From assembly GCA_044892505.1 (NCBI GenBank), contig CM097882.1, positions 280,674,001-280,738,000 of the forward strand: a stretch of 64,000 bases of DNA, in the 5' to 3' direction. Source of the DNA: Schmidtea nova. Taxonomy: Eukaryota. Of this stretch, positions 24,063 to 40,316 are shown one piece after another (the stretch's first letter is position 1; each line of letters starts with the position of its first letter). Under the pieces are notes generated by a model. That model was not told the DNA's origin. It saw only the letters and a list, made by a program, of their open reading frames with translations, and did no database searches. The position numbers and the translations under genes were made by a program.

Positions 24063-24068
24063 AATATT
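24063..24068. repeat. Target-site duplication, left copy (AATATT)
   Basis: Empty units read AAAAG-AATATT-TTCACCAG. Here AATATT occurs on both sides of the insert. 21491+2640+16242+6 = 40379, the exact position of the next USP ATG. Confidence 0.97.
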
Positions 24069-24260
24069 AGTAGGCAGACATGAGGAGCCGGGAACAAAGA
24101 ACTATTACGTAATCGATGACGTAACAAAGAACATACCCCCCCTCCCCTTTTTTTTTTTTGCAACCCCCCCCCCTAATTTTTTTTTTTTTTTTTTTTTTAA
24201 TTTACACACACACAGACGATGAGTCATAAAAAAATTTTTTACACACACACACACCATCGA

Positions 24261-24388
24261 TGACTCATTTCAAATTTGAATTTTATGACGTCATCGATGA
24301 CTCATTTCAAATTTGAATTTTATGACGTCATCGCTGACTCATTTCAAATTTGAATTTTATGACGTCATCGATGACTCATTTCAAATTT
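24261..24388 (+). promoter_or_regulatory. 37-bp tandem repeat (3 copies + partial), each with an AP-1 site (TGACTCA) and a CRE site (TGACGTCA)
   Basis: Unit TGACTCATTTCAAATTTGAATTTTATGACGTCATCGA. The repeat is seen directly; the regulatory role is inferred from bZIP consensus motifs. Confidence 0.8.
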
Positions 24389-24707
24389 AAATTTTAAATT
24401 TAAATTCCCAAGGGTCAAATAAGGTCAAACTTTCAAACAAGGGTATCATTCGAAAGGTCTTGGAGAGGTCTATACAATGGTCATACCCTCGAAGGTGTAT
24501 GGAGGGTCCTTAACCTTCAAGGGTCAAAAACCTTCAACCATTTTCAAACCTTATAATATACATATCAAACAAAAGGTAATTGAAGGGTGCACACAATGGT
24601 CATACCTTCCAAGGTCTATGGTGGGTGCTCAACCTTCAAAGGGTACAAAACAAGGATATGAATGTAAGTACGGTTTTCTTAATGACTCATAGGTAAGATT
24701 TATTTGG

Positions 24708-24976
24708 ATGACTCATTGGGATGACTCATCTACATGACTCATTTACATGACTCATCAGTATGACATATCAATATGACGCATCAGTATGACTCATCAATAT
24801 GACGCATCAGTATGACTCATCAGTATGACTCATCAATATGACTCATTAGTATGACTCATTAGTATGACTCATCAGTATGACTCATCGGTATGACTCATTG
24901 GTATGACTCATTAGTATGACTCATCAGTATGACTCATCGGTATGACTCATTGGTATGACTCATCAGTATGACTCAT
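24708..24976 (+). promoter_or_regulatory. 13-bp tandem array of AP-1 sites (21 units, 18 perfect ATGACTCAT)
   Basis: ATGACTCAT(cagt) at a strict 13-bp period from 24708 to 24968. Variants at 24760, 24773 and 24799. One extra site at 24682. Confidence 0.85.
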
Positions 24977-25240
24977 CAACAAAAACAAATATTAACAAAG
25001 ATATAGCAATGCACGTGCAAATTAACAAAGACTTTGCAAAGTGAATGCAAAGAAACAAAGACTAATTTTTAGGGAATTTTAACATTTTTAAGGTCAAAAA
25101 TTCAAAAACATAAAAAACTTAAAATTTTTTAAAAAACATAAAATTTTACAAAACATTTTTTCAAAAACACAAAGTGAGAATTAATCAACATTTATTAATA
25201 AATACACATATATATATATATGACAACAATGTTATTCCAA

Positions 25241-25684
25241 CTATGCAATTCTTGCGCTTTTTATCTTCCAAATTGGAGACATTGATTCTTTTGGATCGAT
25301 TTTATATCCTTGGATGGATATATCAATAAACCAATTTTCATTATCCGTATATTCAACTGATTGAAATGCATCATGAAATTCAGTGTTCCTGTTGTTGATG
25401 AATATAGTTTCATTGCAAGATAATTTCTTGTTGATTTTCGTCAACACTTTATTGATTGCAACAACATCTTCTTTATAAATCTGACCAATCAAGTTGGAAT
25501 ATTGCGAAGTCGAAAGCTTTACCGGATTTGGGACCTTGAAAGAGATTTCGTTTACCAAGAAAAACATTTGGTAATCGTGAAACATCTGAACCGGTCGTAA
25601 ATCAAATTTGTTTTGAGTTGATTTGTTATCGTTCCTAACTGGTTTCATTTTAATTGGACTCAATTTACTGAAAAGATTTTGCAT
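25241..25684 (-). CDS. 147-aa protein encoded within the left TIR (possible OB-fold ssDNA-binding protein)
   Basis: ATG-initiated ORF identical to 38755-39198, with TATA and CCAAT upstream. C-terminal IDISIQGY...SPIWKIKSARI resembles T7 gp2.5-like/NCLDV SSBs (low-confidence inference). Confidence 0.75.
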   Translation of the reverse strand: MQNLFSKLSPIKMKPVRNDNKSTQNKFDLRPVQMFHDYQMFFLVNEISFKVPNPVKLSTSQYSNLIGQIYKEDVVAINKVLTKINKKLSCNETIFINNRNTEFHDAFQSVEYTDNENWFIDISIQGYKIDPKESMSPIWKIKSARIA

Positions 25685-25712
25685 TTTATGAACAATTCTA
25701 TTTTTGTTTTCT

Positions 25713-25746
25713 TATTTATACTCGTCATCGTCTGTGTGCAGCCAAT
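25713..25746 (-). promoter_or_regulatory. Pol II-type core promoter (CCAAT box + TATAAATA) of the left TIR gene
   Basis: TATAAATA on minus strand 25720-25713, CCAAT at 25742-25746, ATG at 25684. Confidence 0.6.
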
Positions 25747-25997
25747 CAGATTCTTGCACATGTCTTGTAAATCAATTGCACATGTCTTGCTAATCAATTG
25801 GCTATGTATTAATAATTGACTTTGTATACATGTTATTATACATTCTTAACTCCATCGATATTATAAAACTTTCTAAAATTATAACAAAACGTAGAAAAAA
25901 AAATCATTTAAATAAATCTTGTATTTTTTATATACATATCACAAAGTTAATTTTATCACAATGTTTATTTTCACATATTGATACTGCGGATACAATC

Positions 25998-26103
25998 TCT
26001 GAACAAACTGGTTTTTGGATGATATGTTTTCTGAACAAACTGGTTTTTGGATGATATGTTTTCTGGACAAACTTTTTTGATATGTTTTCTGCTCAAACTG
26101 ATT
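25998..26103 (+). repeat. Degenerate 26-32 bp minisatellite running into the N gap
   Basis: TCTGAACAAACTGGTTTTTGGATGATATGTTT x2 followed by two shortened variants. Confidence 0.8.
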
Positions 26104-26414
26104 NNNNNNNNNNNNNNNNNNNNNNNNNNNNNNNNNNNNNNNNNNNNNNNNNNNNNNNNNNNNNNNNNNNNNNNNNNNNNNNNNNNNNNNNNNNNNNNNN
26201 NNNNNNNNNNNNNNNNNNNNNNNNNNNNNNNNNNNNNNNNNNNNNNNNNNNNNNNNNNNNNNNNNNNNNNNNNNNNNNNNNNNNNNNNNNNNNNNNNNNN
26301 NNNNNNNNNNNNNNNNNNNNNNNNNNNNNNNNNNNNNNNNNNNNNNNNNNNNNNNNNNNNNNNNNNNNNNNNNNNNNNNNNNNNNNNNNNNNNNNNNNNN
26401 NNNNNNNNNNNNNN
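26104..26414. other. Assembly gap or masked segment (311 N)
   Basis: Run of N; contains the unseen PolB stop codon. Confidence 0.99.
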
Positions 26415-29400
26415 ATATAATCATAATCTTCAAAATAGTTTTCATCCGTTTGTTCATTTGCCTCTGGCATGATATTTGATGGTCCAGGATCATTTATAAC
26501 TATAGAGATATCACCCCCTCTGTAATGGCCATACGCCAAACTCTTATTCTTATCTATCCATTGGCGTTTATCATCTAAGTTTGTTAAGGCCCTCTTTTTA
26601 CTTTTTACACTATACAACTGGTGGTTTTTACTGACTATCCTAAATTGGGGCACAGTATAAATTTTATTATTCCTATAGCAATCAAGATAGGACTCATGAC
26701 AAATTTCGGTATCCTCAAGACAAACACCCTTCGCTTTAAGACATTCCTCATCCCCTAACAAACTATAACATTTTGGTCTCAAGAACACCCACTCCTTATA
26801 CAGAAACCCTTTATTCTCGTCTTTGAATTTACCAATGACAGAATCAAGGCTCCTACTGTATAAGGGATGATTTGGGTCATAATTAGACGTGTCAAGAAGT
26901 CTATCCCTAATCATAGCATCTAACAAGGTATTCAAGGAAAGATTTTTCACCTCTAAAAAGAAAGAATCCGTGTCACCAGCTACAATATTTATCTCACAAT
27001 TAAACTCAGTGCGATAACTTTCTAATTCTTCATATTGTAGCTGGTACATGCGAAGTTTGGATAAATCTAGTACAGTTTGTCCAATGTAACTAGGTCTATC
27101 CAAACATACTGTTTCTTTTCTTAACAATACGGCGATAAGATCATTGTCAATTCTAGTTGTTTTTCGAAAATATGGTTTTGATGTGTAGGTTATTAATTTT
27201 TCCAGATTATTACACAACCGTAAGTTAATTCTTTTCTTAAGATTCTCTACGGTCTTACCGTAGAGACTATTATTAATTAATTTAAAATAATTACGATCCA
27301 GCTTGTTTGTACTTGCTGCTCGTTTTTGGGTGTTTATATTAATAAAATTTTTAAAAATATAATCTTGTTTAAATTTTATTGCTCTATGAGCTTTTTTAAC
27401 AATAACACCAATTTTAATAAAAATTGCGAGAAGTCGCCAATGGAGCACATAGTTGTTTTTCGGATAGTGTGTCAGTAGCAACTTCTCGACTTTCGAAAAA
27501 GGGGCACACATCTTTTCAGCGGCAACTGGAAAATCATCCAGCTTGTCGTGAATCGACGTCGGTATCTCTAGATCCACTTCAATGGTATAACCATATTCAA
27601 GTGTCTCTAAATCTACCGTTGTGCATTCAGTTAAAATATTAGTTAATAAGTGGTCATCTGTGACCCATTCAAAATTACCGTATGGCAGCTTTTGACTTAA
27701 AGCCCACCCGTACAAATTATTAATATCAATATACAATAAAGAAGTCGTTTCGGAGGATACTACGTGATGCTTGTTGACAAATGTCAAACCACCACGGATC
27801 CCCCCTTCGAAAAAATTATACATCTCCCTATCTTGCAAAAGCTCGATAGGATATTCCAAAGACATCAATGCTGAACTCCAGCTCATACCGGGGATACCCA
27901 AAAAATTTAAGGGTTCAAGTCTATTGTGGGCAATGCTCCTAGCCCGAAACTGCTGAAAATAATCAGCTAAAAGAAAAACATCTAATTTTAAATAAACCAT
28001 CATGTAATCAAAAAGTGATGTACATGAGGTTTCTCTCCAGATTCTTTTAGCCAATTCATACTCCTCTACTTTAACACCTTTCCATATCGGGGGTAATGAG
28101 GTTGTTGATTGTAAAACCTCTAAAGATATTGCTGCATCATAAGGAAAAATGCCTTTACTTTTAATAATTGATCCTTGAAATTCCGACTCAGTTAATGGTA
28201 AAGAAGTCAATGTGTCAACTGCATTTTTCAATGATTCATTAATGAATTGATATGAATCAATAAATTTTACTGTTACTGAGGATATCCTAGCGAATAAACT
28301 CAAAAACTTCTCGCTCGTGACCGGGATACAACTTATATTCCACGATGAATATTTTGACAAACCAAATTTGAGGATATGATGCAAATCATACCCTCGCAAA
28401 TTATGAAACACTACGGGCAGCGTGTGTCTAATTGGCCTTGACAGATTACAAGATGAGCATGCCGCTCCAAGGAAATGGCCGGAAAAGTGGTCATGGTCCC
28501 TTACTTTCCTCACCAACGGCTTATTACACAAGTAACATCTTGTGCTATTTTCATAATTTTCCCTATCATCGTCAGAAAAAATTATTTTTTTATTATAATT
28601 ATTATAATAAAACGGAGCAACAATCTTTTTGCTAATGTATTGAATTTGAGAAAGGAATTTGTCAACACAATCAATACCGTAATATGATTTATAAAATCTC
28701 ACTCCTGTCAGATTATTTATACATAATAACCCTGCAGAAATGGGTATATGCTTCTGAAAGTACTTAGTGTCTTTAGGTAAAATTGCCTCAAAATCGGCAT
28801 AGATGACAAAGGGAGGAGTGACAGTCTTCGACCAGTCAGTAAATTCGAGAAATTTATTAGTAGGAAGGGTGTACATTGTTGTACCTAACTGGTTTTTATC
28901 ACAGAGAATAATATGACGATCAAAAGTATCGTCATTCCTGAAGCCGTTTAGACACCTAGGACACCATTGCGATTGTATTCTGACAGGAGAGATTAAATCA
29001 TTTCTGCAATTTAAAAACTTATTTAGATCTGTTATTGCTGCGTAATGAAACCCTTTACTATTTTGAAGCAAAAGCAGATTTAATGGGGTACCGTCTACAA
29101 CTTTAGAACGGTAAATAATATCTATAAACGGATGTTTCATAACTGCTTCGTTGTCTGTGAGGTCAATTAATGCATGTTCATCATATGAAAGGACATTAAT
29201 ACTGTAACCCGGATTCTGACGCTCAAATTTATCAATGTTACAAAGCCTCATAGGCATATCAGTCGGGTCAAAATTTAATTCGGAAAGATTGTAAGAAGTT
29301 GTTCTATGACGATATTGTCTACTAATACTATTATATCTTAAAATAGCCAAGATGCTATATAAAAAACAAAATTCATCATTTTTATTGTTGACATTAACTA

Positions 29401-29770
29401 TGCAACTTAAATTGATTAGAGAAACCGGTGTTTTAATGAATCTACTACCACTAAGCCTGCTTATTTCCGAAAACTTAGTCAAAATAAAACTTATATATTC
29501 TAATTTAGATATTGTCCAATTCGACCCTTTCTCATTTATACCAATCAATTTTTCATTGAGAAGTGAAATACCTTCCTCAATGAATGTACTGCTCCAAACA
29601 CGGGCAGAATTTGAGATGATGAAACTCTGTAGTTCATTGTCCTTCTCAAATTCTACCTTTAAGCAGAATTGTATTTTTACAGTCTTCATTTTATTTATTA
29701 AATCATTTAATTTATTAGATAAAATTTCAGGTACAGAGACCGTTTTCAAATTTAAACTCGAAACATCCAT
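26415..29770 (-). CDS. polB: Protein-primed family B DNA polymerase (pPolB) with N-terminal terminal-protein/OTU-like region; 3' end lies in the N gap
   Basis: Exo I YADFE, RDHDHFSG..C..CN insert, Exo II HNLRGYD, Exo III YLKLDV, motif A YIDINNLYG, motif B KLINNSLYGK, motif C GDTDS, KCY. First ATG is 29770 (the track start 29797 is TTG; the track end 26093 reads through Ns). Confidence 0.96.
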
Positions 29771-29798
29771 TTTAACAATTACATGACTATCTTTCAAG

Positions 29799-31130
29799 TC
29801 ACCGGTAATCTACCAAGCCACAACCTATTTGATTAATTATAGGTTTATTAATTATAGGTTTATTAATAGAAAATGAATTTAAGATTAAAGGTGTAACCTC
29901 ATCATCACTGATGGTAATAATTTCTTCATCATCACTGATGGTAATGATTTCTTCGTCATCACTGATGGTGATTATATCGTCCAATTTACATTTTTTATTA
30001 GAATTTATTTTTTCATTAATTAATTTTCTTTTATTAATATTTATTTGATTATTTAAAATATTAATTTTGTTATTTAAATTAATTATTTCATCATTTTGAT
30101 TATTAATTGGAATAGTTTGGTTATTAATTGGAATATTTTTATTATTTTGAATATTTGATGTAGTTTGAATATTTTGAATCATTTCACTATGTTGATTATT
30201 ATTTTGGAAATTATTATTATTTGTGATCAATAGATTAAAAAGGGATTTTTTGGAGGGTTGGAATTGAGTAAGATGGAACCTATGTTTAGTAAAGAAAGCC
30301 ATATAGGGGATTACTTCAATTACCTTACAATAGGGACAAATGAAGTGGGTGATACCTCTATATTTATAACTGTAATACTTTTCCATAATGACGTGGCAGT
30401 CATTATGTAAAGTACTATTACAGAAAGTAGTGTATAGTACACCTAAATAAAATAATTATATAAAATAATTATATAAAGTAATTATATAAAATAATTATAT
30501 AAAATGTTTCTTAGATTATTTTCATTTAACATATTATGAAATTATTGAAAAGAAAACTATTTGGTAATACATTAAATGAAAATTTACATTATTATCGTCA
30601 ATAATATAAAACATTAAATATTACTTAGTACAAAAATTTAGGGAATAAAATCAACTTCATTAAAAAAAAAATAATACTTCATATCGAAATAACATATACT
30701 TTATATACTTTATTCAAAAATTAATATTTCTATCTTATTAAAGATTAATTATTTAAATCATTAAAAATAATTATTTAAATCATATTTTATTAAAAAAAAA
30801 AAAACAAATAAAAAACATACATTTTTTCGAAACAGCACCAGAAACGTCAGCATAAGCCGCATCATTTGAATTTAACATATCATAATTATTCATAATTTGT
30901 TCTAAAGAATTTGATATGAAAAGCAAAATTCAACAAAAAAAAAAAATGTACCATTATTTCCATTTATTCCGCTAATCCCATTATTTCCATTTAATCCATT
31001 TCTAATGTTAACATTAGTTCTTGACATATTTCCTAAATTAAAAATAAAAATAATATAAAAGTAATGAAATAATTTTACCATTAACTCCTGATCCGTTGAC
31101 CATTCTTACATTTGATATATTGTTGAACAT
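29799..31130 (-). CDS. Predicted four-exon 285-aa protein: Asn/Gly-rich N-terminus, Cys/His cluster, Asn/Gln/Ile-rich linker, three tandem IITISDDE(E/V) SIM-like repeats
   Basis: Exons 31130-31079, 31032-30952, 30901-30821, 30442-29799. GT-AG introns of 46, 50 and 378 nt, all phase 1, give an open frame into the 195-aa track ORF (29799-30386). The 195-aa part is well supported; the third junction is the least certain. Confidence 0.65.
29895..29975 (-). repeat. 27-bp coding tandem repeat x3 (IITISDDEE)
   Basis: ATAATCACCATCAGTGATGACGAAGAA-like unit, three copies with synonymous differences. Confidence 0.9.
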
Positions 31131-31470
31131 TTTGATAATAATAATAGGTTAAAATTTGATTATAAAATTTTGGGTATAGTAAAAAGTGATTAAAATAATT
31201 AAAACATCTCTTTATATATATGGTCTATTGCATAATAACTATTCGACCAATGAAATTCGTTTATGGATAGAAAAGTTACGCTCACACACACACATAGTAT
31301 TTGTATTAACATACACACACATGTTATACACTATGTAACATTATATATATAATATTTACTAACACATGATTAATCATGCACGATGAATGCAAGGGTCATG
31401 CACGATAACTGCAGGGGTCATGCATCTTTTATTGCAAAACAATTATTTTTAATTAAAAAAAAAAAAAAAA

Positions 31471-31890
31471 TTAAATTTTCAAATAATCTAAAACCCCCAC
31501 CAAGCAACCTTTATAAGCACAGTTTGTGTGATCCCGATATGGACATGAAATATTGTCAGGAAAAACTTCTACTTCCTTAACATTATACTTAATTAATTTT
31601 AGGGACGGAAAATATCTTTTTAAAACAGTAAGTTTATCTTGATCAGTCACATAGAAAATCGCATCAACATCTTCAATTTCTTTCAAAATACATGTTGGAC
31701 AAAAGTGGTCTTCCCCTTCATACCATTCTAATCTGTCATGTTCACCAATTCCAGCCCAAAAAGGAACATCATTATATATCCAATATCTTGGTCGAAAAAT
31801 ATTATTAACATTCATAATACATAATTCTTTAATAATAATCCCTCCGCAATTATCATTATAACCATAAATATCAATAAAATAACAAGTCAT
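31471..31890 (-). CDS. 139-aa Polinton accessory protein, possibly a degenerate DEDD/DnaQ-like fold with C-terminal Cys/His cluster
   Basis: ATG ORF co-oriented with core genes. N-terminal FIDIYGY..IIKEL, central HDRLEWYEG, C-terminal CPYRDHTNCA. Fold call is from recalled pattern only. Confidence 0.6.
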   Translation of the reverse strand: MTCYFIDIYGYNDNCGGIIIKELCIMNVNNIFRPRYWIYNDVPFWAGIGEHDRLEWYEGEDHFCPTCILKEIEDVDAIFYVTDQDKLTVLKRYFPSLKLIKYNVKEVEVFPDNISCPYRDHTNCAYKGCLVGVLDYLKI

Positions 31891-31921
31891 TTTTCTAATA
31901 ATATTTATTAAACTAAATTGT

Positions 31922-32305
31922 TTATACTTTTAACATAGAATTAAGCCATGCAAGGCAATATTGTCCACATGTAATTGTTAATGGATGCTGATACCGAATT
32001 TTATTATATACAATCGGTTTACCCAATGTTTGCAGTTTACTAACTAATAAACCGGGATAATAACATCCGAAGGGATCGAATGCATATACATTGCTTGGTT
32101 TCACATATACAGCAATCCAATGTTCTCCGCCTAGAGTAGATGATTGAGTATTGACGACTATGGCTTGGTTGACATCTAAATAAGGGATTTTATCTAATGG
32201 ATAGACTCCAATAAATTGATTTCCTAACAACTGTTTTCCAATTCGATTAACCTGAATAGAACTATATAAATAAATATATTTGATAAATAATAAAACTTAC
32301 TCCAT
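31922..32305 (-). CDS. pro: Adenain-like cysteine maturation protease, two exons (32305-32301, 32261-31922), 114 aa
   Basis: GEHW (His), FDPFG (Asp), RYQH (Gln), CGQYC (Cys). The track ORF has no ATG. A 39-nt GTAAGT...TATAG intron yields MDSIQVNRIGKQLLGNQFIGVYPLD. Confidence 0.92.
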
Positions 32306-32372
32306 GACAAATTGTTAATTTTAACTTGTACATTTATAATGATAGTTTAAACCAGTAATGTCTGAGCTCTGC

Positions 32373-33593
32373 TCAAACTAATACTGTTCGATTAGCAGTA
32401 ATTTGAATTTCATTTTCAAAAACTCCATATATTATTACATGTACTGGTTCTTCAATGGCTTTAGCAAACTTGATATCCAATCTCAAATTTCCATTTTGAG
32501 GTAATTGACTTTGATTTAAATCGAAATCCGGAGCCAAAACAAATGTAAAGAATGGATATTTGTTTTTAAAATCAGCAAGATTTATACCACAATTTAAGTT
32601 CTTATCTAAATATCCCATATTTCTGACCATCGATTGCATATATGTAGTACAATAATTATCATTTTCGAAATCTTGAGTATATGTTTCTCGATAATCAGTG
32701 TTTTTCGATAAAGATAGAGAAGTTACATTGAAATGTTTGAATTTCGAACTTGATGCAGTATATGATCCATTGTATTGAGTTTCACTTTGAAATGCGACCA
32801 GAATAAAATTTGGCATTCTTCGATCTCCAAATATTTGTTCCTTGTAGAAAGATGATGCACCTTTACCAATAGCAAATTGTACTATTTCTTTGGTTTTCAT
32901 TGGATAAATAGCGTGTTTTGAGTTAAGTCCAACTTGATGTCCAGCTAATACAGAGGGTTCAACGCGAACGCGACGAATCATTAACTTTGCATCAACTAAT
33001 TGACATTTTGGTGCACCGTTTTTTGAATAAAGTGATAGTGAAGAATCAGATCGCTTCAGTCTGATGTGAACATTGACACCTGGTAATAAATATTTCGGTT
33101 GATCCATGAAATCCAGTTGTAGAGATGAACACATTGTAAATAGCTTTGAGCCTTTGATCCACGCTTTTCTCTCGTCAGAATCTCCATATCCCATTGGAGT
33201 AAGACAAGTTTCTTTAGTATCACCATTATAATTTAAAATAGTTTCGATTATTGCCTTGTGTGCATATGTATTGTTTCCACCTTCAATTTTGATATTATTA
33301 AAACCAAGAATCGCGTCCTTGAATAGAGTATGAAACATAAAATTGTTTGGTATAACATCATCAGTTGCAGACAAATCTTTTTTATCGGCATTTACAACTT
33401 TTATTTGAACTGTTAGTAAAGTATCATTCAAATCCAAATATTCAGATTGAGATCCGTTAATGTAAAATTCCACATCATTTCTACCGTCTGTAATAGAATT
33501 CATGGGAAATACTTCTTCAAATGCACCATTTTCAATGACTGCTTGAGGAGATGGTCGGTCGAAAAGACATAATTCAGATTTACCACAAATCAT
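32373..33593 (-). CDS. mcp: Major capsid protein (double jelly-roll, Polinton PY)
   Basis: KSELCLFDRP.Q..IE...EEVFP...VEFYI.G..SEYLDLNDTLL N-terminal signature and C-terminal GNLRLDIKFA...VIIYG; 406 aa. Confidence 0.92.
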   Translation of the reverse strand: MICGKSELCLFDRPSPQAVIENGAFEEVFPMNSITDGRNDVEFYINGSQSEYLDLNDTLLTVQIKVVNADKKDLSATDDVIPNNFMFHTLFKDAILGFNNIKIEGGNNTYAHKAIIETILNYNGDTKETCLTPMGYGDSDERKAWIKGSKLFTMCSSLQLDFMDQPKYLLPGVNVHIRLKRSDSSLSLYSKNGAPKCQLVDAKLMIRRVRVEPSVLAGHQVGLNSKHAIYPMKTKEIVQFAIGKGASSFYKEQIFGDRRMPNFILVAFQSETQYNGSYTASSSKFKHFNVTSLSLSKNTDYRETYTQDFENDNYCTTYMQSMVRNMGYLDKNLNCGINLADFKNKYPFFTFVLAPDFDLNQSQLPQNGNLRLDIKFAKAIEEPVHVIIYGVFENEIQITANRTVLV

Positions 33594-33988
33594 TTTGCAA
33601 ATATAGTTCCATGTCCTTTCATTCGATTGTTTATATACCTTCGATGCTTTTTACGTCTAGGCCCCACTTGTTCCGGTTCAGGTTCAGGTTCAGGCTCATC
33701 TTTATTTAACATACTTGCAACATTAGGAATCATACAAGTCACAGTAGGCAGTACTTTGCCAATAGCAGACAAGGCATTTGTTTTCAATGATGGTAGTATT
33801 TTCTGATCATTCATGATCACATCTTTGGCAGTTTTCAAACCAAAACTACCTATTCGCTTAAGAATTGGGAGTGCAAATCGCCCTATAGTTTTTAACCAAC
33901 CTGATCCATACTGTTTACCTGCAAAATAAGGTAATTCACCACCAGTTTGGCTATTACTATACAATGAAATTATATCTGGATTAATCAT
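33590..33988 (-). CDS. Small virion protein upstream of MCP (adenovirus pVI/core-like, amphipathic helix, basic C-terminus)
   Basis: QTGG...YFAG.QYGSGW followed by amphipathic WLKTIGRFALPILKRIG, (EP)n run and RRKKHRR. Stop overlaps the MCP start (ATGA). Confidence 0.75.
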   Translation of the reverse strand: MINPDIISLYSNSQTGGELPYFAGKQYGSGWLKTIGRFALPILKRIGSFGLKTAKDVIMNDQKILPSLKTNALSAIGKVLPTVTCMIPNVASMLNKDEPEPEPEPEQVGPRRKKHRRYINNRMKGHGTIFAK

Positions 33989-35003
33989 TTAATTTACGAA
34001 AATGTAATGTCAAATGTGTTTTTGAATCTTTTGGAAAATTTATTAATTTACCACTATCGTCACGGATATTTATTTCTATATTGTTTATACATGAGGTAGA
34101 AATAGGTAAATACATTGGATTATCCATTACTATTTGTACAACTTCATCCTGTTCATATTTGTCGATCCATACAGATTTCAGTAGAGGAACCAGAGAATCA
34201 CCGACAATTATTGGTTCGATAATGTTACTGTAAATGAACATTTGTTGATGATGATTAAATAATTTGGCTTTGCGAATTCCTTTAAATTCTCTATCTTGAT
34301 ATTTTTCATATTTTAATCCAAGTGTATTGATTAGTTTTTGATCAAATATAACTTCTTTAACTTCATCTTTCAGTTTAAATTTGAATACATTGTCAATAAT
34401 TTCAACACCTTTAAATATATGAGTACAGAAAAATGTCAAATAATTATATAATTCTTCAACTTTTGTCATGTATATTTCGTCTTGGAATTCATAAAGTAAA
34501 TCTGTTTCTAAATCATAACTTATTGATATATGCATTTTCTCTGATGAATAATCAGAAGGAATAAGCATTTTATAAGTTGAATTGTTGCTAATGATTTTTA
34601 ATTCATTAAACCCAAATTTATTCGCATCTTCTATATTTTCAAACTTAAAATAAAATGGTGTTATATCACAATTTATATGTAAATATATTTTATCTAGATG
34701 TAATTCAACTTTATCATTCAAATATTGAGTATCTTCATAATTAGTTTGAACTTTAAAGTAGTCATTTACAGTTTCAGTTGTCACTGTCGTGTAGTAAATT
34801 TTGCATTGGCTGTAATAAGGAAATTTGTTATATACAAATGTGAAATCTTGCAATGCAACTTCCCAATTACCACGTAAATAAATTGGATTTTGAAGATTGA
34901 CCATGAATTTACTGGCTTCATTATCTGGATGTATTAGTGGACAGCTATTACTCGGTAATATAGTATAAAAATTCACTTTACTAGGTCTTTTGATGATATC
35001 CAT
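33981..35003 (-). CDS. Minor capsid protein (penton, single jelly-roll, Polinton PX)
   Basis: FYTILPSNS...F.V.L.NPI.L.GNWEVAL N-terminus and FIYSNIIEP..VGD..VPLLK...YLP...INNIEINI.D..G C-terminus. First ATG is 35003 (the track start 35027 is GTG). Confidence 0.9.
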   Translation of the reverse strand: MDIIKRPSKVNFYTILPSNSCPLIHPDNEASKFMVNLQNPIYLRGNWEVALQDFTFVYNKFPYYSQCKIYYTTVTTETVNDYFKVQTNYEDTQYLNDKVELHLDKIYLHINCDITPFYFKFENIEDANKFGFNELKIISNNSTYKMLIPSDYSSEKMHISISYDLETDLLYEFQDEIYMTKVEELYNYLTFFCTHIFKGVEIIDNVFKFKLKDEVKEVIFDQKLINTLGLKYEKYQDREFKGIRKAKLFNHHQQMFIYSNIIEPIIVGDSLVPLLKSVWIDKYEQDEVVQIVMDNPMYLPISTSCINNIEINIRDDSGKLINFPKDSKTHLTLHFRKLND

Positions 35004-36027
35004 GAAGGGTTTTGATATCCATGCCACTTTACGTAGTATTGTTTATCCTTACCCACTATTTTAGTTTTTAATATTTTTTGAATTCTAAATACAGTAGGCG
35101 GAGGAATAACTTGTAATTCTTGCTCGTAAAATTTCCCACTAACTACATTATTGTCAGAGTCAGAAATAACATACATGACAGGGTCTTGGCTAGTATTAAT
35201 TTTTGAGATCTGAAATACCTCATCACTCCAATTACTATCAAAATTTTTGATGAATGGCGAAGCGCTAATCTTGCTAATTCGAACATGATCACCAATTTTA
35301 TATTTCGGTTTCTTTATATTAGTTTTTAATTTGTGAGATCCAGTATTTTTCGTTGAAACATCAACAGGTCTCATTCCATTTATACCTTTGTGTGAGGAAT
35401 GATTATAACTATGTATTATTTTTGGCAGTACATTAATCCATGTTTTATTACCTTGATGCACAAAATACTTTTTCAAACGATCTCTTAATGTACGATTAAA
35501 TCGTTCAACATGGGCTGCTTTGAATTGAGAAAACACAGAGTAATGATTAATCCCGACCAAAACTTCTTTAACTTTACTATTGTAAAATTCTTTACCTAAA
35601 TTATAATTAAAAATGTATAGAATAAGTATATATTCTTACCCAAATCAGTTTGCAAATTTTTTGGACGACCTGATTTAAACATAGTTTTGATTGCAACAGC
35701 CATTTCATTTGCTGATTTAGTTTTAGTAGGAATAGCCCGAGCAAATCTATTGAAAACATCGATACATGTTAAAATATATTTATATCCCTTGTTAATATTT
35801 GAATATGGTATCATTTCCATCAAATCCATTTGCCACAAGTCATTAATGCCATATGTTTTATATGCTCTTGTTGGAAATCGTTTCAATGCCGGTTTGTTTA
35901 GACTGTATGCCAGTTGTTCCGATAACCATTTTTGAGTTTCTTTTTTCGAGTTTGGGACTTTTTTCTTTAGCTTTTCGACTCCACCGAAACCGGCGGGATC
36001 TTTTGGGTTTGTCCATATCTTCTCCAT
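34973..36027 (-). CDS. int: Retroviral-like DDE integrase with C-terminal chromodomain, two exons (36027-35640, 35595-34973), 336 aa
   Basis: WQMD, QTD, VERFNRT catalytic triad. A 44-nt GTAAGA...TTTAG intron joins two track ORFs into LQTDLGKEFYN. Chromodomain FRIQKIL...YYVKWHGY..SWI. Confidence 0.95.
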
Positions 36028-36094
36028 TACAACAAGAAGAATTAAAATTCAATTTAAGATTAGGTAAATGACCAATCGGTAATTGACCCATTGT

Positions 36095-36640
36095 TTATGA
36101 TTTTGAGGGGTTTCCTAGTAATCCTACACCACCTAATAAAGATAATGCTAATGGAAGCAATGCCGCAATAAACCCTCCGTGTTGTTTATATATTATTTTG
36201 CGCATTTGCTTTTTATTTTTAGTATTTACTAATGATAATAATGGTTTCTTGTGTTTGTTCAACACGTTTTTATTTGATTTACTGATATTAATTTTACCTT
36301 TGACAACTTTAACTATAACATCAAGTAAATCATCAATTACATAATTGGGAAATGATTGTAAAATATTCATTCTTCTAATGCTTGGAGCCTTGAGTAATGC
36401 ATTGAAAAATGGAAAACTGCGATGATTTTTAGATTTTTTACTTGCAGTTGTCTTTGGCATCTTTGATGTATCGGGTTTTGAATTGTGTGAAATTAGATTC
36501 ATTTTGGGAAAATTTTCGGTGATTAATTTTTTCGGAGGCGTGAAACTCGTTTTAGATGGAATTAGTGTTTCACGATTCTTTTTAATAACTTTTCTAAGTT
36601 TTGATATCTTTGGATGTTTGGATCGTGCTTTAAGTAACAT
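36095..36640 (-). CDS. Basic virion core protein with adenovirus pX/mu-like C-terminus
   Basis: Lys-rich 181 aa ending KQHGG-FIAALLPLALSLLGG, resembling the GG-hydrophobic helix tail of adenoviral pX. Confidence 0.7.
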   Translation of the reverse strand: MLLKARSKHPKISKLRKVIKKNRETLIPSKTSFTPPKKLITENFPKMNLISHNSKPDTSKMPKTTASKKSKNHRSFPFFNALLKAPSIRRMNILQSFPNYVIDDLLDVIVKVVKGKINISKSNKNVLNKHKKPLLSLVNTKNKKQMRKIIYKQHGGFIAALLPLALSLLGGVGLLGNPSKS

Positions 36641-36660
36641 GATTAATTTCTAACATAATT

Positions 36661-37284
36661 TTAACTTTGTTTATAAACCATTGCTCCTTCTTTGTTAAAA
36701 ATATCAGTTCTAACACGTAATTCATCACTACATTGTTGAGTAAAATCGAGAAAAATATATCCATGTGGGACTTTAGTTGCATCTTGAAATGCATTGATCA
36801 AGAAATTCCGATTATTAGGGTAAGCCTGTCTTGCAAGAAAATCGATAACGGTAGCATCTCTAGGATTTTTAAAAATAACTAGATATTGGACATTCAAATT
36901 TCGAGTTCGATGACTACCACCCTGATGAAATAAATTCTGAGTAATAAAAATAACTGTAACTCCTTTATGTCTAGCAATTTTTGTGAATAAATTATTGAAA
37001 TCCTTCTCTTTATTTGCTTCTTGATACAAATCATCAATAATAATTACATCACCACTTCGTAATCTAGACGACCAGTTTTTATCGAATCCTTTTATTATAG
37101 TCATTTTAATCTTACAGAATTGATCTTGAGTCATTCCATGCTCATCATCAGCTCCCCTATGCCAATAAATTTTGTTAAATTTTGATTTGAATAATTTTGA
37201 TTGTAATAATTTACAAACAAATAAAGTTTTTCCACTTCCACTTGGACCGACAATTTGATAAACTGCATCATTTCTTAACTCCAT
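36661..37284 (-). CDS. A32/FtsK-HerA-like genome packaging ATPase
   Basis: Walker A GPSGSGKT, Walker B VIIIDD, ARH, ITQN, KNPRD. First ATG is 37284 (the track start is TTG). Confidence 0.95.
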   Translation of the reverse strand: MELRNDAVYQIVGPSGSGKTLFVCKLLQSKLFKSKFNKIYWHRGADDEHGMTQDQFCKIKMTIIKGFDKNWSSRLRSGDVIIIDDLYQEANKEKDFNNLFTKIARHKGVTVIFITQNLFHQGGSHRTRNLNVQYLVIFKNPRDATVIDFLARQAYPNNRNFLINAFQDATKVPHGYIFLDFTQQCSDELRVRTDIFNKEGAMVYKQS

Positions 37285-37380
37285 TTTCAAAATATTAAGA
37301 GTTTATGGATATTGTTTATATTTGTTTTAATTAATTGATATACTTTTACAAAATATATTTAAAAAATAATCAGTCTTATA

Positions 37381-37851
37381 ATGTTAAGCAACATAAATTA
37401 CAAAGGAAAATGTTCTGTTTCTCATATGAAATTTCCAAATGGTAAGCCACAGCAGATTGTAGATAGGAAAGGTAAGTATCCTATAATATTTTTCAAGTCA
37501 GGTAAATGTAGAATAATGGGATGTAAACAACCTCTTAAAGATCAAGATTTATTATATGAAATAAGAGATTTACAAATACAATCGATTACAGTTACTACAG
37601 ATATTGGAAAATGTGTCAATTTACATGAATTGTCACAAAATCTCTCATGTTCTTATGAGCCAGAAATATTCCCGGCATTGAGATATATAAAGTATAATCC
37701 TTTATGTGTAAACGTATTCAACAGTGGTAAAGTTGTTATACTCGGTATAAAAACGTTAAACTATCATGATTTGGTAGAAGAAATAATTAACGATATCAAA
37801 TCGGTTATTGATGACGTAGAATTCTTGAAATTCTTGTTACTTGTTACGTAA
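37381..37851 (+). CDS. TATA-binding protein (TBP)-like protein
   Basis: Two TBP half-repeats: IIFFKSGKCRIMG, then IQSITVTTD...NLHEL...SYEPEIFPALRY...VNVFNSGKVVILG; 156 aa. Confidence 0.85.
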   Translation: MLSNINYKGKCSVSHMKFPNGKPQQIVDRKGKYPIIFFKSGKCRIMGCKQPLKDQDLLYEIRDLQIQSITVTTDIGKCVNLHELSQNLSCSYEPEIFPALRYIKYNPLCVNVFNSGKVVILGIKTLNYHDLVEEIINDIKSVIDDVEFLKFLLLVT

Positions 37852-37977
37852 TAAAATACAGGATTTTGATTGGTTGTTTGGAAAGAAATACTTCATTTTG
37901 ATTGGAAGACTGTGTGTACGAATTAACAGTATATATATCAACATCATTTTCATTACATTTATATCAACAGTAAAAAA

Positions 37978-38334
37978 ATGTCTCTTAATAAAACCAATGG
38001 TAAGGATTGATTTTTATTTTGAAATTTTTATTAATGAGTTCTTTTGTTTTTAGAAAAACTGATGGGCGTTCTGCTTGAAAAAATGGAGGATTTGTACCCG
38101 AAACTTATGCGTGAATTGGTTTACTGCGCTCCAGAGCTCCTTCCTTATAAAATATTAGCATTAACCGGAATTGATCTCAACAAGGTGTTGCTCGACCATC
38201 AGCATAATATAGAAGAAGAAGAATGCAGCGCCAGCATTATCTGTGCCTATAGATGCGATAGTTGCGTCAATAGGACTCAGAAATACCACAAATGGTTACT
38301 CCGAGAGGAGTTAAGAAACTTTTTAGGACAATAA
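37978..38334 (+). CDS. 100-aa Cys/His-containing hypothetical protein, two exons (37978-37999, 38054-38334)
   Basis: ATG in A-rich context. A 54-nt GTAAGG...TTTTTAG phase-1 intron joins in frame to track ORF 38044-38334. C-terminal C..C..C..C..H cluster. AATAAA overlaps the stop. Confidence 0.7.
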
Positions 38335-38485
38335 ATATTATTATAGTTAAAATGTCTTTTTATTGAGTGTTTTTATAAAGTATTTATTTTCTTAAAACGA
38401 GTTATGAAAGATGTTTTGTAGTTAAAATTAATTTTTATAAAATGTTGATGTTGAATATTTATAGAAAATAATTTTAGTAATAGTA

Positions 38486-38490
<5 letters not shown>

Positions 38491-38523
<33 letters not shown>
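38491..38523 (+). repeat. (AAT)11 microsatellite
   Basis: Direct reading; preceded by TAG/TAA variants. Confidence 0.85.
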
Positions 38524-38527
<4 letters not shown>

Positions 38528-38692
38528 GGATAGACAATAAAATTGCGATAGATATGTAAATAACTTACAACATATATAGAAAGAAATTGCAGTAGATAAT
38601 CATCAACATGTATACAAAGTCAATTATTAATACATAGCCAATTGATTAGCAAGACATGTGCAATTGATTTACAATACATGTGCAAGAATCTG

Positions 38693-38726
38693 ATTGGCTG
38701 CACACAGACGATGACGAGTATAAATA
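38693..38726 (+). promoter_or_regulatory. Pol II-type core promoter (reverse CCAAT + TATAAATA) of the right TIR gene
   Basis: ATTGG at 38693-38697, TATAAATA at 38719-38726, ATG at 38755; AATAAA about 40 nt after the stop. Confidence 0.6.
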
Positions 38727-38754
38727 AGAAAACAAAAATAGAATTGTTCATAAA

Positions 38755-39198
38755 ATGCAAAATCTTTTCAGTAAATTGAGTCCAATTAAAATGAAACCAG
38801 TTAGGAACGATAACAAATCAACTCAAAACAAATTTGATTTACGACCGGTTCAGATGTTTCACGATTACCAAATGTTTTTCTTGGTAAACGAAATCTCTTT
38901 CAAGGTCCCAAATCCGGTAAAGCTTTCGACTTCGCAATATTCCAACTTGATTGGTCAGATTTATAAAGAAGATGTTGTTGCAATCAATAAAGTGTTGACG
39001 AAAATCAACAAGAAATTATCTTGCAATGAAACTATATTCATCAACAACAGGAACACTGAATTTCATGATGCATTTCAATCAGTTGAATATACGGATAATG
39101 AAAATTGGTTTATTGATATATCCATCCAAGGATATAAAATCGATCCAAAAGAATCAATGTCTCCAATTTGGAAGATAAAAAGCGCAAGAATTGCATAG
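38755..39198 (+). CDS. 147-aa protein encoded within the right TIR (identical to 25241-25684)
   Basis: Identical translation; promoter and polyA signal present. Confidence 0.75.
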   Translation: MQNLFSKLSPIKMKPVRNDNKSTQNKFDLRPVQMFHDYQMFFLVNEISFKVPNPVKLSTSQYSNLIGQIYKEDVVAINKVLTKINKKLSCNETIFINNRNTEFHDAFQSVEYTDNENWFIDISIQGYKIDPKESMSPIWKIKSARIA

Positions 39199-39456
39199 TT
39201 GGAATAACATTGTTGTCATATATATGTGTATTTATTAATAAATGTTGATTAATTCTCACTTTGTGTTTTTGAAAAAATGTTTTGTAAAATTTTATGTTTT
39301 TTAAAAAATTTTAAGTTTTTTATGTTTTTGAATTTTTGACCTTAAAAATGTTAAAATTCCCTAAAAATTAGTCTTTGTTTCTTTGCATTCACTTTGCAAA
39401 GTCTTTGTTAATTTGCACGTGCATTGCTATATCTTTGTTAATATTTGTTTTTGTTG

Positions 39457-39660
39457 ATGAGTCATACTGATGAGTCATACTGATGAATCATACTGATGCG
39501 TCATATTGATGAGTCATACCAATGTGTCATATTGATGAGTCATACTGATGAGTCATGTAGATGAGTCATACCAATGAGTCATGTAGATGAGTCATACTGA
39601 TGCGTCATACTGATGAGTCATGTAAATGAGTCATGTAGATGAGTCATCCCAATGAGTCAT
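39457..39660 (-). promoter_or_regulatory. 13-bp tandem array of AP-1 sites (16 units, 12 perfect ATGAGTCAT)
   Basis: 13-bp period from 39457 to 39652; variants at 39483, 39496, 39522, 39600. Confidence 0.85.
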
Positions 39661-39973
39661 CCAAATAAATCTTACCTATGAGTCACTAAGAAAACCGTAC
39701 TTACATTCATATCCTTGTTTTGTACCCTTTGAAGGTTGAGCACCCACCATAGACCTTGGAAGGTATGACCATTGTGTGCACCCTTCAATTACCTTTTGTT
39801 TGATATGTATATTATAAGGTTTGAAAATGGTTGAAGGTTTTTGACCCTTGAAGGTTAAGGACCCACCATACACCTTCGAGGGTATGACCATTGTATAGAC
39901 CTCTCCAAGACCTTTCGAATGATACCCTTGTTTGAAAGTTTGACCTTATTTGACCCTTGGGAATTTAAATTTA

Positions 39974-40138
39974 AAATTTGAAATGAGTCATCGATGACGT
40001 CATAAAATTCAAATTTGAAATGAGTCATCGATGACGTCATAAAATTCAAATTTGAAATGAGTCATCGATGACGTCATAAAATTCAAATTTGAAATGAGTC
40101 ATCGATGACGTCATAAAATTCAAATTTGAAATGAGTCA
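39974..40138 (-). promoter_or_regulatory. 37-bp AP-1 + CRE tandem repeat (4 copies + partial)
   Basis: TCGATGACGTCATAAAATTCAAATTTGAAATGAGTCA at 39991, 40028, 40065, 40102. Confidence 0.8.
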
Positions 40139-40310
40139 TCGATGGTGTGTGTGTGTGTAAAAAAAATTTATGACTCATCGTGTGTGTAAAAAAAAAAAAA
40201 AAAAAATTATGGGGGGGGGTTGCAAAAAAAAATAGGGGGGGGGTATGTTCTTTGTTACGTCATCGATTACGTAATAGTTCTTTGATCCCGGCTCCTCATG
40301 TCTTCCTACT

Positions 40311-40316
40311 AATATT
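40311..40316. repeat. Target-site duplication, right copy (AATATT)
   Basis: CCTACT-AATATT-TTCACCAG. Confidence 0.97.

Follow-up and report, generated by a model that had tools for sequence, protein, structure and literature searches.

The three tandem copies of a nonapeptide encoded by a planarian Polinton raise the question of whether this element carries a SUMO reader and, if so, to what end. The repeat lies in a 64,000-nucleotide stretch of the Schmidtea nova genome (GenBank assembly GCA_044892505.1, contig CM097882.1, positions 280,674,001 to 280,738,000 of the forward strand), hereafter the window, to which all coordinates refer. The original prediction described three IITISDDE(E/V) units at 29895-29975, preceded by a basic KKCK patch, in a stand-alone viral protein with a CPYC...H..H segment, and read them as SUMO-interacting motifs (SIMs) of an anti-silencing factor. 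Translation of the minus strand and the 27-bp repeat reported by TRF at 29895-29975 bear out the units, which comprise IITISDDEE at 29949-29975 and again at 29922-29948, followed by IITISDDEV at 29895-29921, and together span residues 138-164 of an ORF at 29799-30386. The basic patch is likewise present and proves to be the second half of a bipartite NLS-like motif, KRK-x-KKCK (29985-30032, minus strand; residues 119-134), for which an NLS function may be presumed from its sequence. The finger-like segment is also there, with putative ligands C17, C20, H35 and H38 (30273-30338, minus strand), and it is kept in homologues.

The surrounding 16,242-bp element (24069-40310) is a Polinton/Maverick, both by its structure, with long terminal inverted repeats (TIRs), AG...CT ends and a 6-bp target duplication, and by its gene set, with a protein-primed polymerase (pPolB), an rve integrase, an A32-like ATPase and an adenain-like protease. 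It begins with AGTAG and ends with CTACT, and the duplicated target, AATATT, occupies 24063-24068 and 40311-40316 as a 6-bp overlap of the flanks. The left TIR (24069-25834) pairs with 38605-40310, as seen from the end sequences and from inverted arms at 25208-25834/38605-39231 (100% identical), 24386-24911/39457-39982 and 24230-24396/40003-40169. On the minus strand lie the packaging ATPase (36661-37284; PF04665 Pox_A32, E 1.4e-06), the integrase (34973-36027), with its rve core (PF00665, E 2e-08) and chromodomain (PF00385, E 1.5e-04) in two ORFs, and the adenain-like cysteine protease (31922-32296; PF00770, E 9.4e-06, over the cut-off), which lacks an in-frame ATG and is probably spliced. 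The missing ATG of the protease and the division of the integrase into two ORFs suggest introns; the integrase is split in the same manner in another copy, L091. That copy shares with the window a TBP-like gene (37381-37851, plus strand; PF00352, E 3.6e-16). A 147-aa ORF with no significant Pfam match lies inside both TIRs (25241-25684, minus strand; 38755-39198, plus strand), and two small minus-strand ORFs (33590-33988 and 36095-36640) containing QTGG, QYGSG and QHGG are candidate protease-processed core proteins. The 406-aa and 340-aa ORFs are presumably the capsid genes; a Pfam scan of these two candidates for the double and single jelly-roll capsid proteins returned no match.

The flanking array continues on either side of the Polinton and consists of tandem 2.64-kb units that are 99.6-100% identical (window positions 350-24068 and 40311-64000). 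Every unit holds an intronless 339-aa ORF for a USP/UCH deubiquitinase, with 18 starts within the window, and the Polinton is inserted 68 bp upstream of the ATG of one such ORF.

The 195-aa ORF that contains the repeat (29799-30386, minus strand) is the leader of the pPolB/terminal-protein (TP) precursor, frameshifted in the window copy. The remainder of the pPolB ORF occupies 26093-29770 on the same strand, with a 3' end that runs through N, hiding the true stop, and with PF03175 recognized in many homologues; the window copy's leader frame departs from the pPolB frame at 29799-29812, just past a QIGCG motif, and then stops. A genome search with the leader returned at least 151 matches, and 82 of the 150 listed lie in open frames of at least 1000 aa. 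We inspected 50 copies, comprising the 30 best matches and 20 chosen for length variants, and found the leader in frame with pPolB in 48, the exceptions being the window copy and one other (L046). This rules out a stand-alone 195-aa protein as the normal state, and on this point the original prediction has to be revised: the ORF that it took for a separate protein forms the start of the polymerase ORF. Three units are present in 44 of the 50 copies and two in the other six, none having fewer; point changes inside the array occur in four, and the acidic tail after the third unit is lengthened in about 14-15.

To place the repeat within the precursor, we predicted the structure of the first 480 residues encoded by one of the natural in-frame copies, using 106 aligned rows (pTM 0.59). 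A single-sequence fold was unusable (pLDDT 33). The one ORF encodes, in order, a zinc finger, a disordered linker, the bipartite NLS-like motif, the three SIM-like units, QIGCG, the TP domain, a viral OTU-like (vOTU) protease/deubiquitinase domain and the polymerase. The model presents a folded finger (residues 1-60; 30207-30386, minus strand; pLDDT about 96), a disordered stretch that includes the repeat (residues 65-186) and then two further domains. Within the finger, C17 and H35 are invariant, and C20 and H38 are kept in 11 of 12 homologues. A profile of the finger matched 27 proteins, 24 of which are fused to a pPolB core, and basic patches occur in most of the homologous linkers. No Pfam family scored over the cut-off for the finger, the rows of the fold searches were filled by the TP and vOTU domains and contained none for it, and its look-alikes in a structure atlas are unnamed clusters with C2H2-like labels, which serve as leads only. 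Several related polymerases (P0013, P0014, P0015, P0129, P0138 and P0253) carry the finger in duplicate.

The two domains behind the linker resemble known folds, with middling Z values. Residues 200-306 match the little finger of Y-family polymerases (Z 8.1, rmsd 2.4, 90 aligned residues) and correspond to the TP domain, of which the part at 29471-29770 (minus strand) lies within the window copy's pPolB ORF; residues 320-457 match OTU proteases in many rows (Z 5-6.5; the best with Z 6.5, rmsd 3.4 and 95 aligned residues) and correspond to the vOTU domain at 29018-29431 (minus strand). The candidate linking serine of the TP (29522-29524) is present in 105 of 106 rows in the context GS[GN]W, and the vOTU catalytic cysteine (29366-29368) and histidine (29045-29047) in 105 and 102 of 106, respectively. 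A sequence comparison of the TP-vOTU region with the PDB gave no significant match, and Foldseek returned none at E <= 0.001, with Y-family polymerases ranking top. These folds and residues agree with PMC11071308, which assigns a Y-family little-finger-like TP and a vOTU to Polinton pPolB. A perfect SIM-b match in a vOTU loop (LIDLT) was dropped, being unconserved among the 45 rows displayed.

All three units match the SIM-a pattern as printed in PMC3395311 and PMC3631770, and none of the 13 other ORFs, among 14 scanned, contains a match. Among 20,000 shuffles of the leader, three matches never occurred, two occurred in one and a single match in 355. A single duplication event yields several copies, so tripled 9-mers provide a fairer control than a plain shuffle: of 20,000 random 9-mers taken from the shuffled linker and tripled, 38 (0.2%) produced SIM-a, and none of 579 real windows from elsewhere in the linker did so on tripling. 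Every unit also carries, beside its core, two CK2 acceptor patterns (S/T-x-x-D/E), TISD and SDDE, in which it resembles phospho-SIMs of the PML and Daxx type, and, at the level of pattern, the array displays the tandem SIMs that are a feature of STUbLs such as RNF4 and ICP0. The array falls in a segment predicted by the 106-row model to be disordered, with pLDDT below 50 over residues 118-186 and no secondary structure over residues 128-186, between well-folded domains. A complex prediction that paired residues 133-166 with the flatworm protein P0273 as a substitute for host SUMO (83% identity over the compared exon), run with neither alignment nor controls on a peptide outside the tool's benchmark, reached a score of 0.02, below the mark of 0.34.

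The divergence among the units bears on constraint at the protein level. Across codons 1-8 of the three units there are at least five substitutions, all silent, a pattern with a chance of 2e-4 to 2e-3 given that 18-29% of single changes are silent; codon 9 of the third unit bears two non-silent changes, whose inclusion gives 0.003-0.025. The genome holds another Polinton family (family C, L066-L077; 43% identical over the compared region, with at least 150 matches) that presents an array of its own behind a bipartite basic motif, IIIISDDE/IIISDDE, with a period of 7. In 8 of the 12 displayed copies with an unaltered array, its two units differ at four positions, all silent. Over the two families, within-core differences are silent in nine of nine cases. 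A third family (family B, L061-L065 and L078-L081) carries instead a 15-residue acidic LIEAVEE repeat in two to three units, with amino-acid changes and no SIM. The divergence between SIM units is silent only, as constraint on the protein would have it, but a loose pattern recovers the motif in just six of the 24 leaders. Acidic, helix-like segments of the type LLEAMEE, LEEMNEE or EMLYNE follow or replace the SIM array in the leader of L062 and in P0001, P0121, P0125 and P0134.

We then compared relatives drawn from 120, 15 and 150 listed database matches, dropping rows with a late-starting profile match or a leader shorter than 40 aa; truncation at the 5' end is possible for many of these entries. 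Most relatives run through a short basic linker into the TP. One subclade bears an acidic insert between the basic motif and the TP, and it is there that SIM-like arrays occur, with periods of 9 (the window family), 7 (family C), 10 (P0001, FIEISDDE/IITIEDSD) and 9 again (three to four VIEIPSSPE-type units in P0010, P0121, P0125 and the fragment P0123, a type that fails the strict SIM-a pattern). A distant clade (P0032, P0033 and P0077) has EVIF(I/V)EE pairs behind a Rho_N-like N-terminus. The motif is found in 6 of the 24 zinc-finger leaders by the loose pattern, which was picked after inspection of the sequences, and in 4 of 24 by strict SIM-a, one of these being an isolated PVDISDS. Strict a, b and r patterns, applied to 171 leaders of at least 40 aa, gave six hits in 4 of the 13 rows of the subclade, which was defined post hoc and includes the query, against 0.94 expected; the 158 rows outside it gave five against 3.99 expected, with no enrichment. 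A scan of metagenome contigs with P0125 returned no match. A quick tree of 60 rows, computed without bootstrap, needs four label changes, three of them forced, and is compatible with one gain plus losses or with several gains; the differing units point at least to independent amplification.

Taken together, the pattern, the predicted disorder, the silent-only divergence and the recurrence in relatives suggest that the array likely binds SUMO. On these grounds the SIM reading of the original prediction holds up. The test that it had proposed, absence of the repeat from homologues, comes out mixed: three further lineages of the clade bear other SIM-like arrays in the corresponding position, but 18 of the 24 zinc-finger leaders lack the motif. 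Candidate host partners are at hand in two intron-containing SUMO paralogues (L083 and L084), with nearly identical proteins, a conserved groove sequence and flatworm proteins as their best named matches. A search of the genome with PF11976 returned ubiquitin fusions rather than SUMO. At L051-L060, and at no fewer than 150 places in the genome, a near-perfect ubiquitin with an LRGG-like end continues in frame into the gag-like ORF of a retrotransposon, which we take to be BEL/Pao-like; apparent captured pieces of host genes, such as HSP70, precede these fusions in frame.

The leader is probably cut from the precursor, a conclusion drawn from motif statistics and from the adenain-like protease encoded by the element. 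In 19 of 24 leaders, finger and TP are separated by a Gly-Gly-type motif, [QMLIV]xG(G|xG), which shuffles would place in 2.7; it stands 10-16 residues ahead of the TP in all eight rows that carry the acidic insert. Since the pattern was fitted to the same sequences, the site is only a lead. It reads QIGCG in the window family (29817-29831, minus strand) and QxGG, MTGG, LVGG or QxGxG in relatives. Apart from the leader, two of the element's 15 ORFs contain the Q-form, those of 132 aa and 181 aa, and the other 12 lack it. An xGxG form is a known variant of the adenain site. QIGCG deviates from the consensus M/LxGG printed in PMC7998265, which also describes cleavage of the adenovirus preterminal protein (pTP) by adenain. 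In all eight rows with an insert, the candidate site comes after the NLS-like motif and the SIMs; if the cut occurs, both depart with the leader, which could be released as a free protein of about 190 aa.

It is quite possible, if somewhat short of probable, that the array docks the pPolB precursor, together with the genome ends that it is predicted to prime, on multiply SUMOylated host nuclear proteins until the protease clips the leader. The precursor would be imported into the nucleus by its basic motif, and the SIM strands would pair with the β2-α1 groove of SUMO, with avidity from the three units and with CK2 acting at SDDE to tune the binding. The TP would be covalently linked to the 5' ends of the genome, and replicase and TP-primed ends would be placed at SUMO-rich nuclear sites before a maturation cleavage at QIGCG comparable to that of adenovirus pTP by adenain. 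The leader would then constitute a replication-phase localisation module that picks the nuclear replication site, and perhaps the integration site, and would be dispensable in lineages without it. In support of the binding step, PMC3631770 reports that tandem SIMs bind poly-SUMO cooperatively and require an acidic linker.

We consider it rather unlikely that the motif was selected for a partner other than SUMO, as an acidic-hydrophobic segment resembling an activation domain, a chaperone of histones or basic proteins or a DNA mimic, or as a CK2 site by which the neighbouring NLS is tuned. Every lineage with an insert between NLS and TP has an acidic one there, the SIM-less family B included, and the success of that family in the same genome means that the conserved trait may be "acidic plus hydrophobic". 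LLEAMEE-like segments in P0001, P0121 and P0125, CK2 patterns within the arrays of family A, family C, P0001 and P0125, and the TBP-like gene on the same element are also consistent with such a partner, and the SDDE beside the NLS of SV40 T antigen is a CK2 site that tunes that NLS. What this explanation leaves unaccounted for is why β-branched ψ-ψ-x-ψ cores with S/D/E residues immediately behind them were amplified four or five times in differing sequences; moreover, the repeats of family B tolerate amino-acid change, whereas the SIM units do not.

The evidence favours neither targeting nor any other use of SUMO binding, anti-silencing included. The latter, in a refined form of the original prediction, appears unlikely. 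The freed leader, with its finger, NLS and SIMs, would compete with host silencing effectors that bear SIMs, or the uncut array would direct the vOTU of its own chain to substrates that carry SUMO, making the two a SUMO-targeted deubiquitinase that counters degradation. All the SIM evidence fits this proposal, as do the position of the NLS and SIMs ahead of the candidate cut in eight of eight insert rows and the intact catalytic residues of the vOTU. Furthermore, nuclear PIWI represses Polintons of a planarian at the chromatin level, according to PMC8532177, and piRNA silencing in Drosophila requires SUMO-dependent recruitment of SetDB1/Wde, according to 10.1101/533091; PMC8532177 makes no mention of SUMO, and the link between SUMO and silencing is therefore borrowed from flies. 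Against the proposal, a leader made one to one with the polymerase would be a poor stoichiometric decoy, Pfam scans detect no effector domain in it, and cleavage of the adenain type usually comes late, in the virion. A more elaborate version, which we find doubtful, holds that a lineage of animal Polintons has more than once acquired a poly-SUMO reader on its genome-linked TP precursor. Before the cut by adenain, SIM array and vOTU would form a SUMO-targeted deubiquitinase on the ends of the viral DNA that protects episome and replisome against silencing driven by SUMO and against extraction by STUbLs, and after it the leader would be a virion-borne SUMO decoy. This would, if true, be the first counter-silencing mechanism to be defined for a Polinton, and it would mirror ICP0.

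Neutral slippage within a linker that is AT-rich and of low complexity, with the SIM match an accident of its Ile/Asp/Asn-rich composition, accords with the slippage-prone linker (several other short repeats and length variants), the variable unit number of 2-3 and the absence of the motif from most relatives, but is largely disfavoured, and very improbable, in view of the nine silent differences out of nine in two families, the rarity of SIM-a among tripled random 9-mers and the minimum of two units in all 50 copies.

If a SUMO reader is accepted on the precursor, its closest parallels differ from it in instructive ways. With RNF4 it shares SIM-a class motifs in tandem, but its three near-identical units arose by DNA duplication, it sits on a viral replicase precursor, its binding is predicted and it has no RING. 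Membership among STUbLs such as RNF4 and ICP0 was rejected: the single CxxC...H..H finger of the leader offers too few ligands for a RING, and Pfam scans of the leader detected neither a RING nor any other family. ICP0 of HSV-1, a viral STUbL, is alike in that a nuclear DNA virus encodes the SIM-like array; here the enzyme next to the array is a protease of a deubiquitinase family rather than a ubiquitin ligase, and the host is an invertebrate. The pPolB of Krupovic et al. 2024 (PMC11071308) shares the little-finger fold of the TP, the linking serine beside a glycine before the last strand and the vOTU Cys/His, whereas the protein described here has an extra leader ahead of the TP, with zinc finger, NLS, SIM array and candidate cut site; "SUMO" and "zinc" are absent from that paper's main text. 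As in the adenovirus pTP/adenain system, the priming protein has an N-terminal extension with a Gly-based motif resembling a protease site, and the genome that encodes it also encodes a protease of the adenain family; adenovirus pTP, in contrast, is encoded by a separate gene and has an unrelated helical extension, and the motif of the Polinton has Gln at P4 and a cleavage that is presumed. The Oncoid proteins of adintoviruses, as described by Starrett et al. 2021 (PMC8502044), share a CXXC, short linear motifs bearing CK2 acceptor sites and a position upstream of PolB. Membership in that group was rejected too, given the in-frame fusion to pPolB in 48 of 50 copies, the SIM-like nature of the motif and, on inspection, the lack of LxCxE in the leader.

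Other viral proteins with SIMs exist; what appears undescribed is the presence of SIMs on a cleavable leader of a Polinton TP precursor. Literature searches over titles and the starts of abstracts, outside subscription papers, retrieved no report of SIMs in Polintons and, for transposon anti-silencing combined with SIMs, a single Daxx/HIRA review; "SUMO" is absent from the main texts, supplements aside, of PMC11071308, PMC8502044 and 10.64898/2026.10.13.758929. Polintons are abundant, with at least 150 copies of the window family, and are silenced by PIWI in a planarian, and a motif for interaction with the host had, as far as we found, not been described on their replicase. A SUMO reader on the TP precursor would provide a peptide-level handle on the choice of nuclear site or on coping with SUMO-based silencing, and the conserved cut motif between leader and TP suggests a pTP-like maturation that the TP-vOTU model does not mention. 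Should SUMO binding fail, a more modest annotation remains, that of a zinc-finger leader with a probable processing site. Natural controls are provided by copies with two and three units, by the other unit sequences and by the SIM-less sister family in the same genome.

The pPolB genes of that sister family, family B, often form divergent inverted pairs 5-9 kb apart (L061-L064, L080-L081 and L094). The 5.7 kb between one such pair contains only repetitive 152-aa ORFs, with no capsid or integrase ORF of at least 70 aa, and the paired form is possibly a palindromic, polymerase-only derivative.
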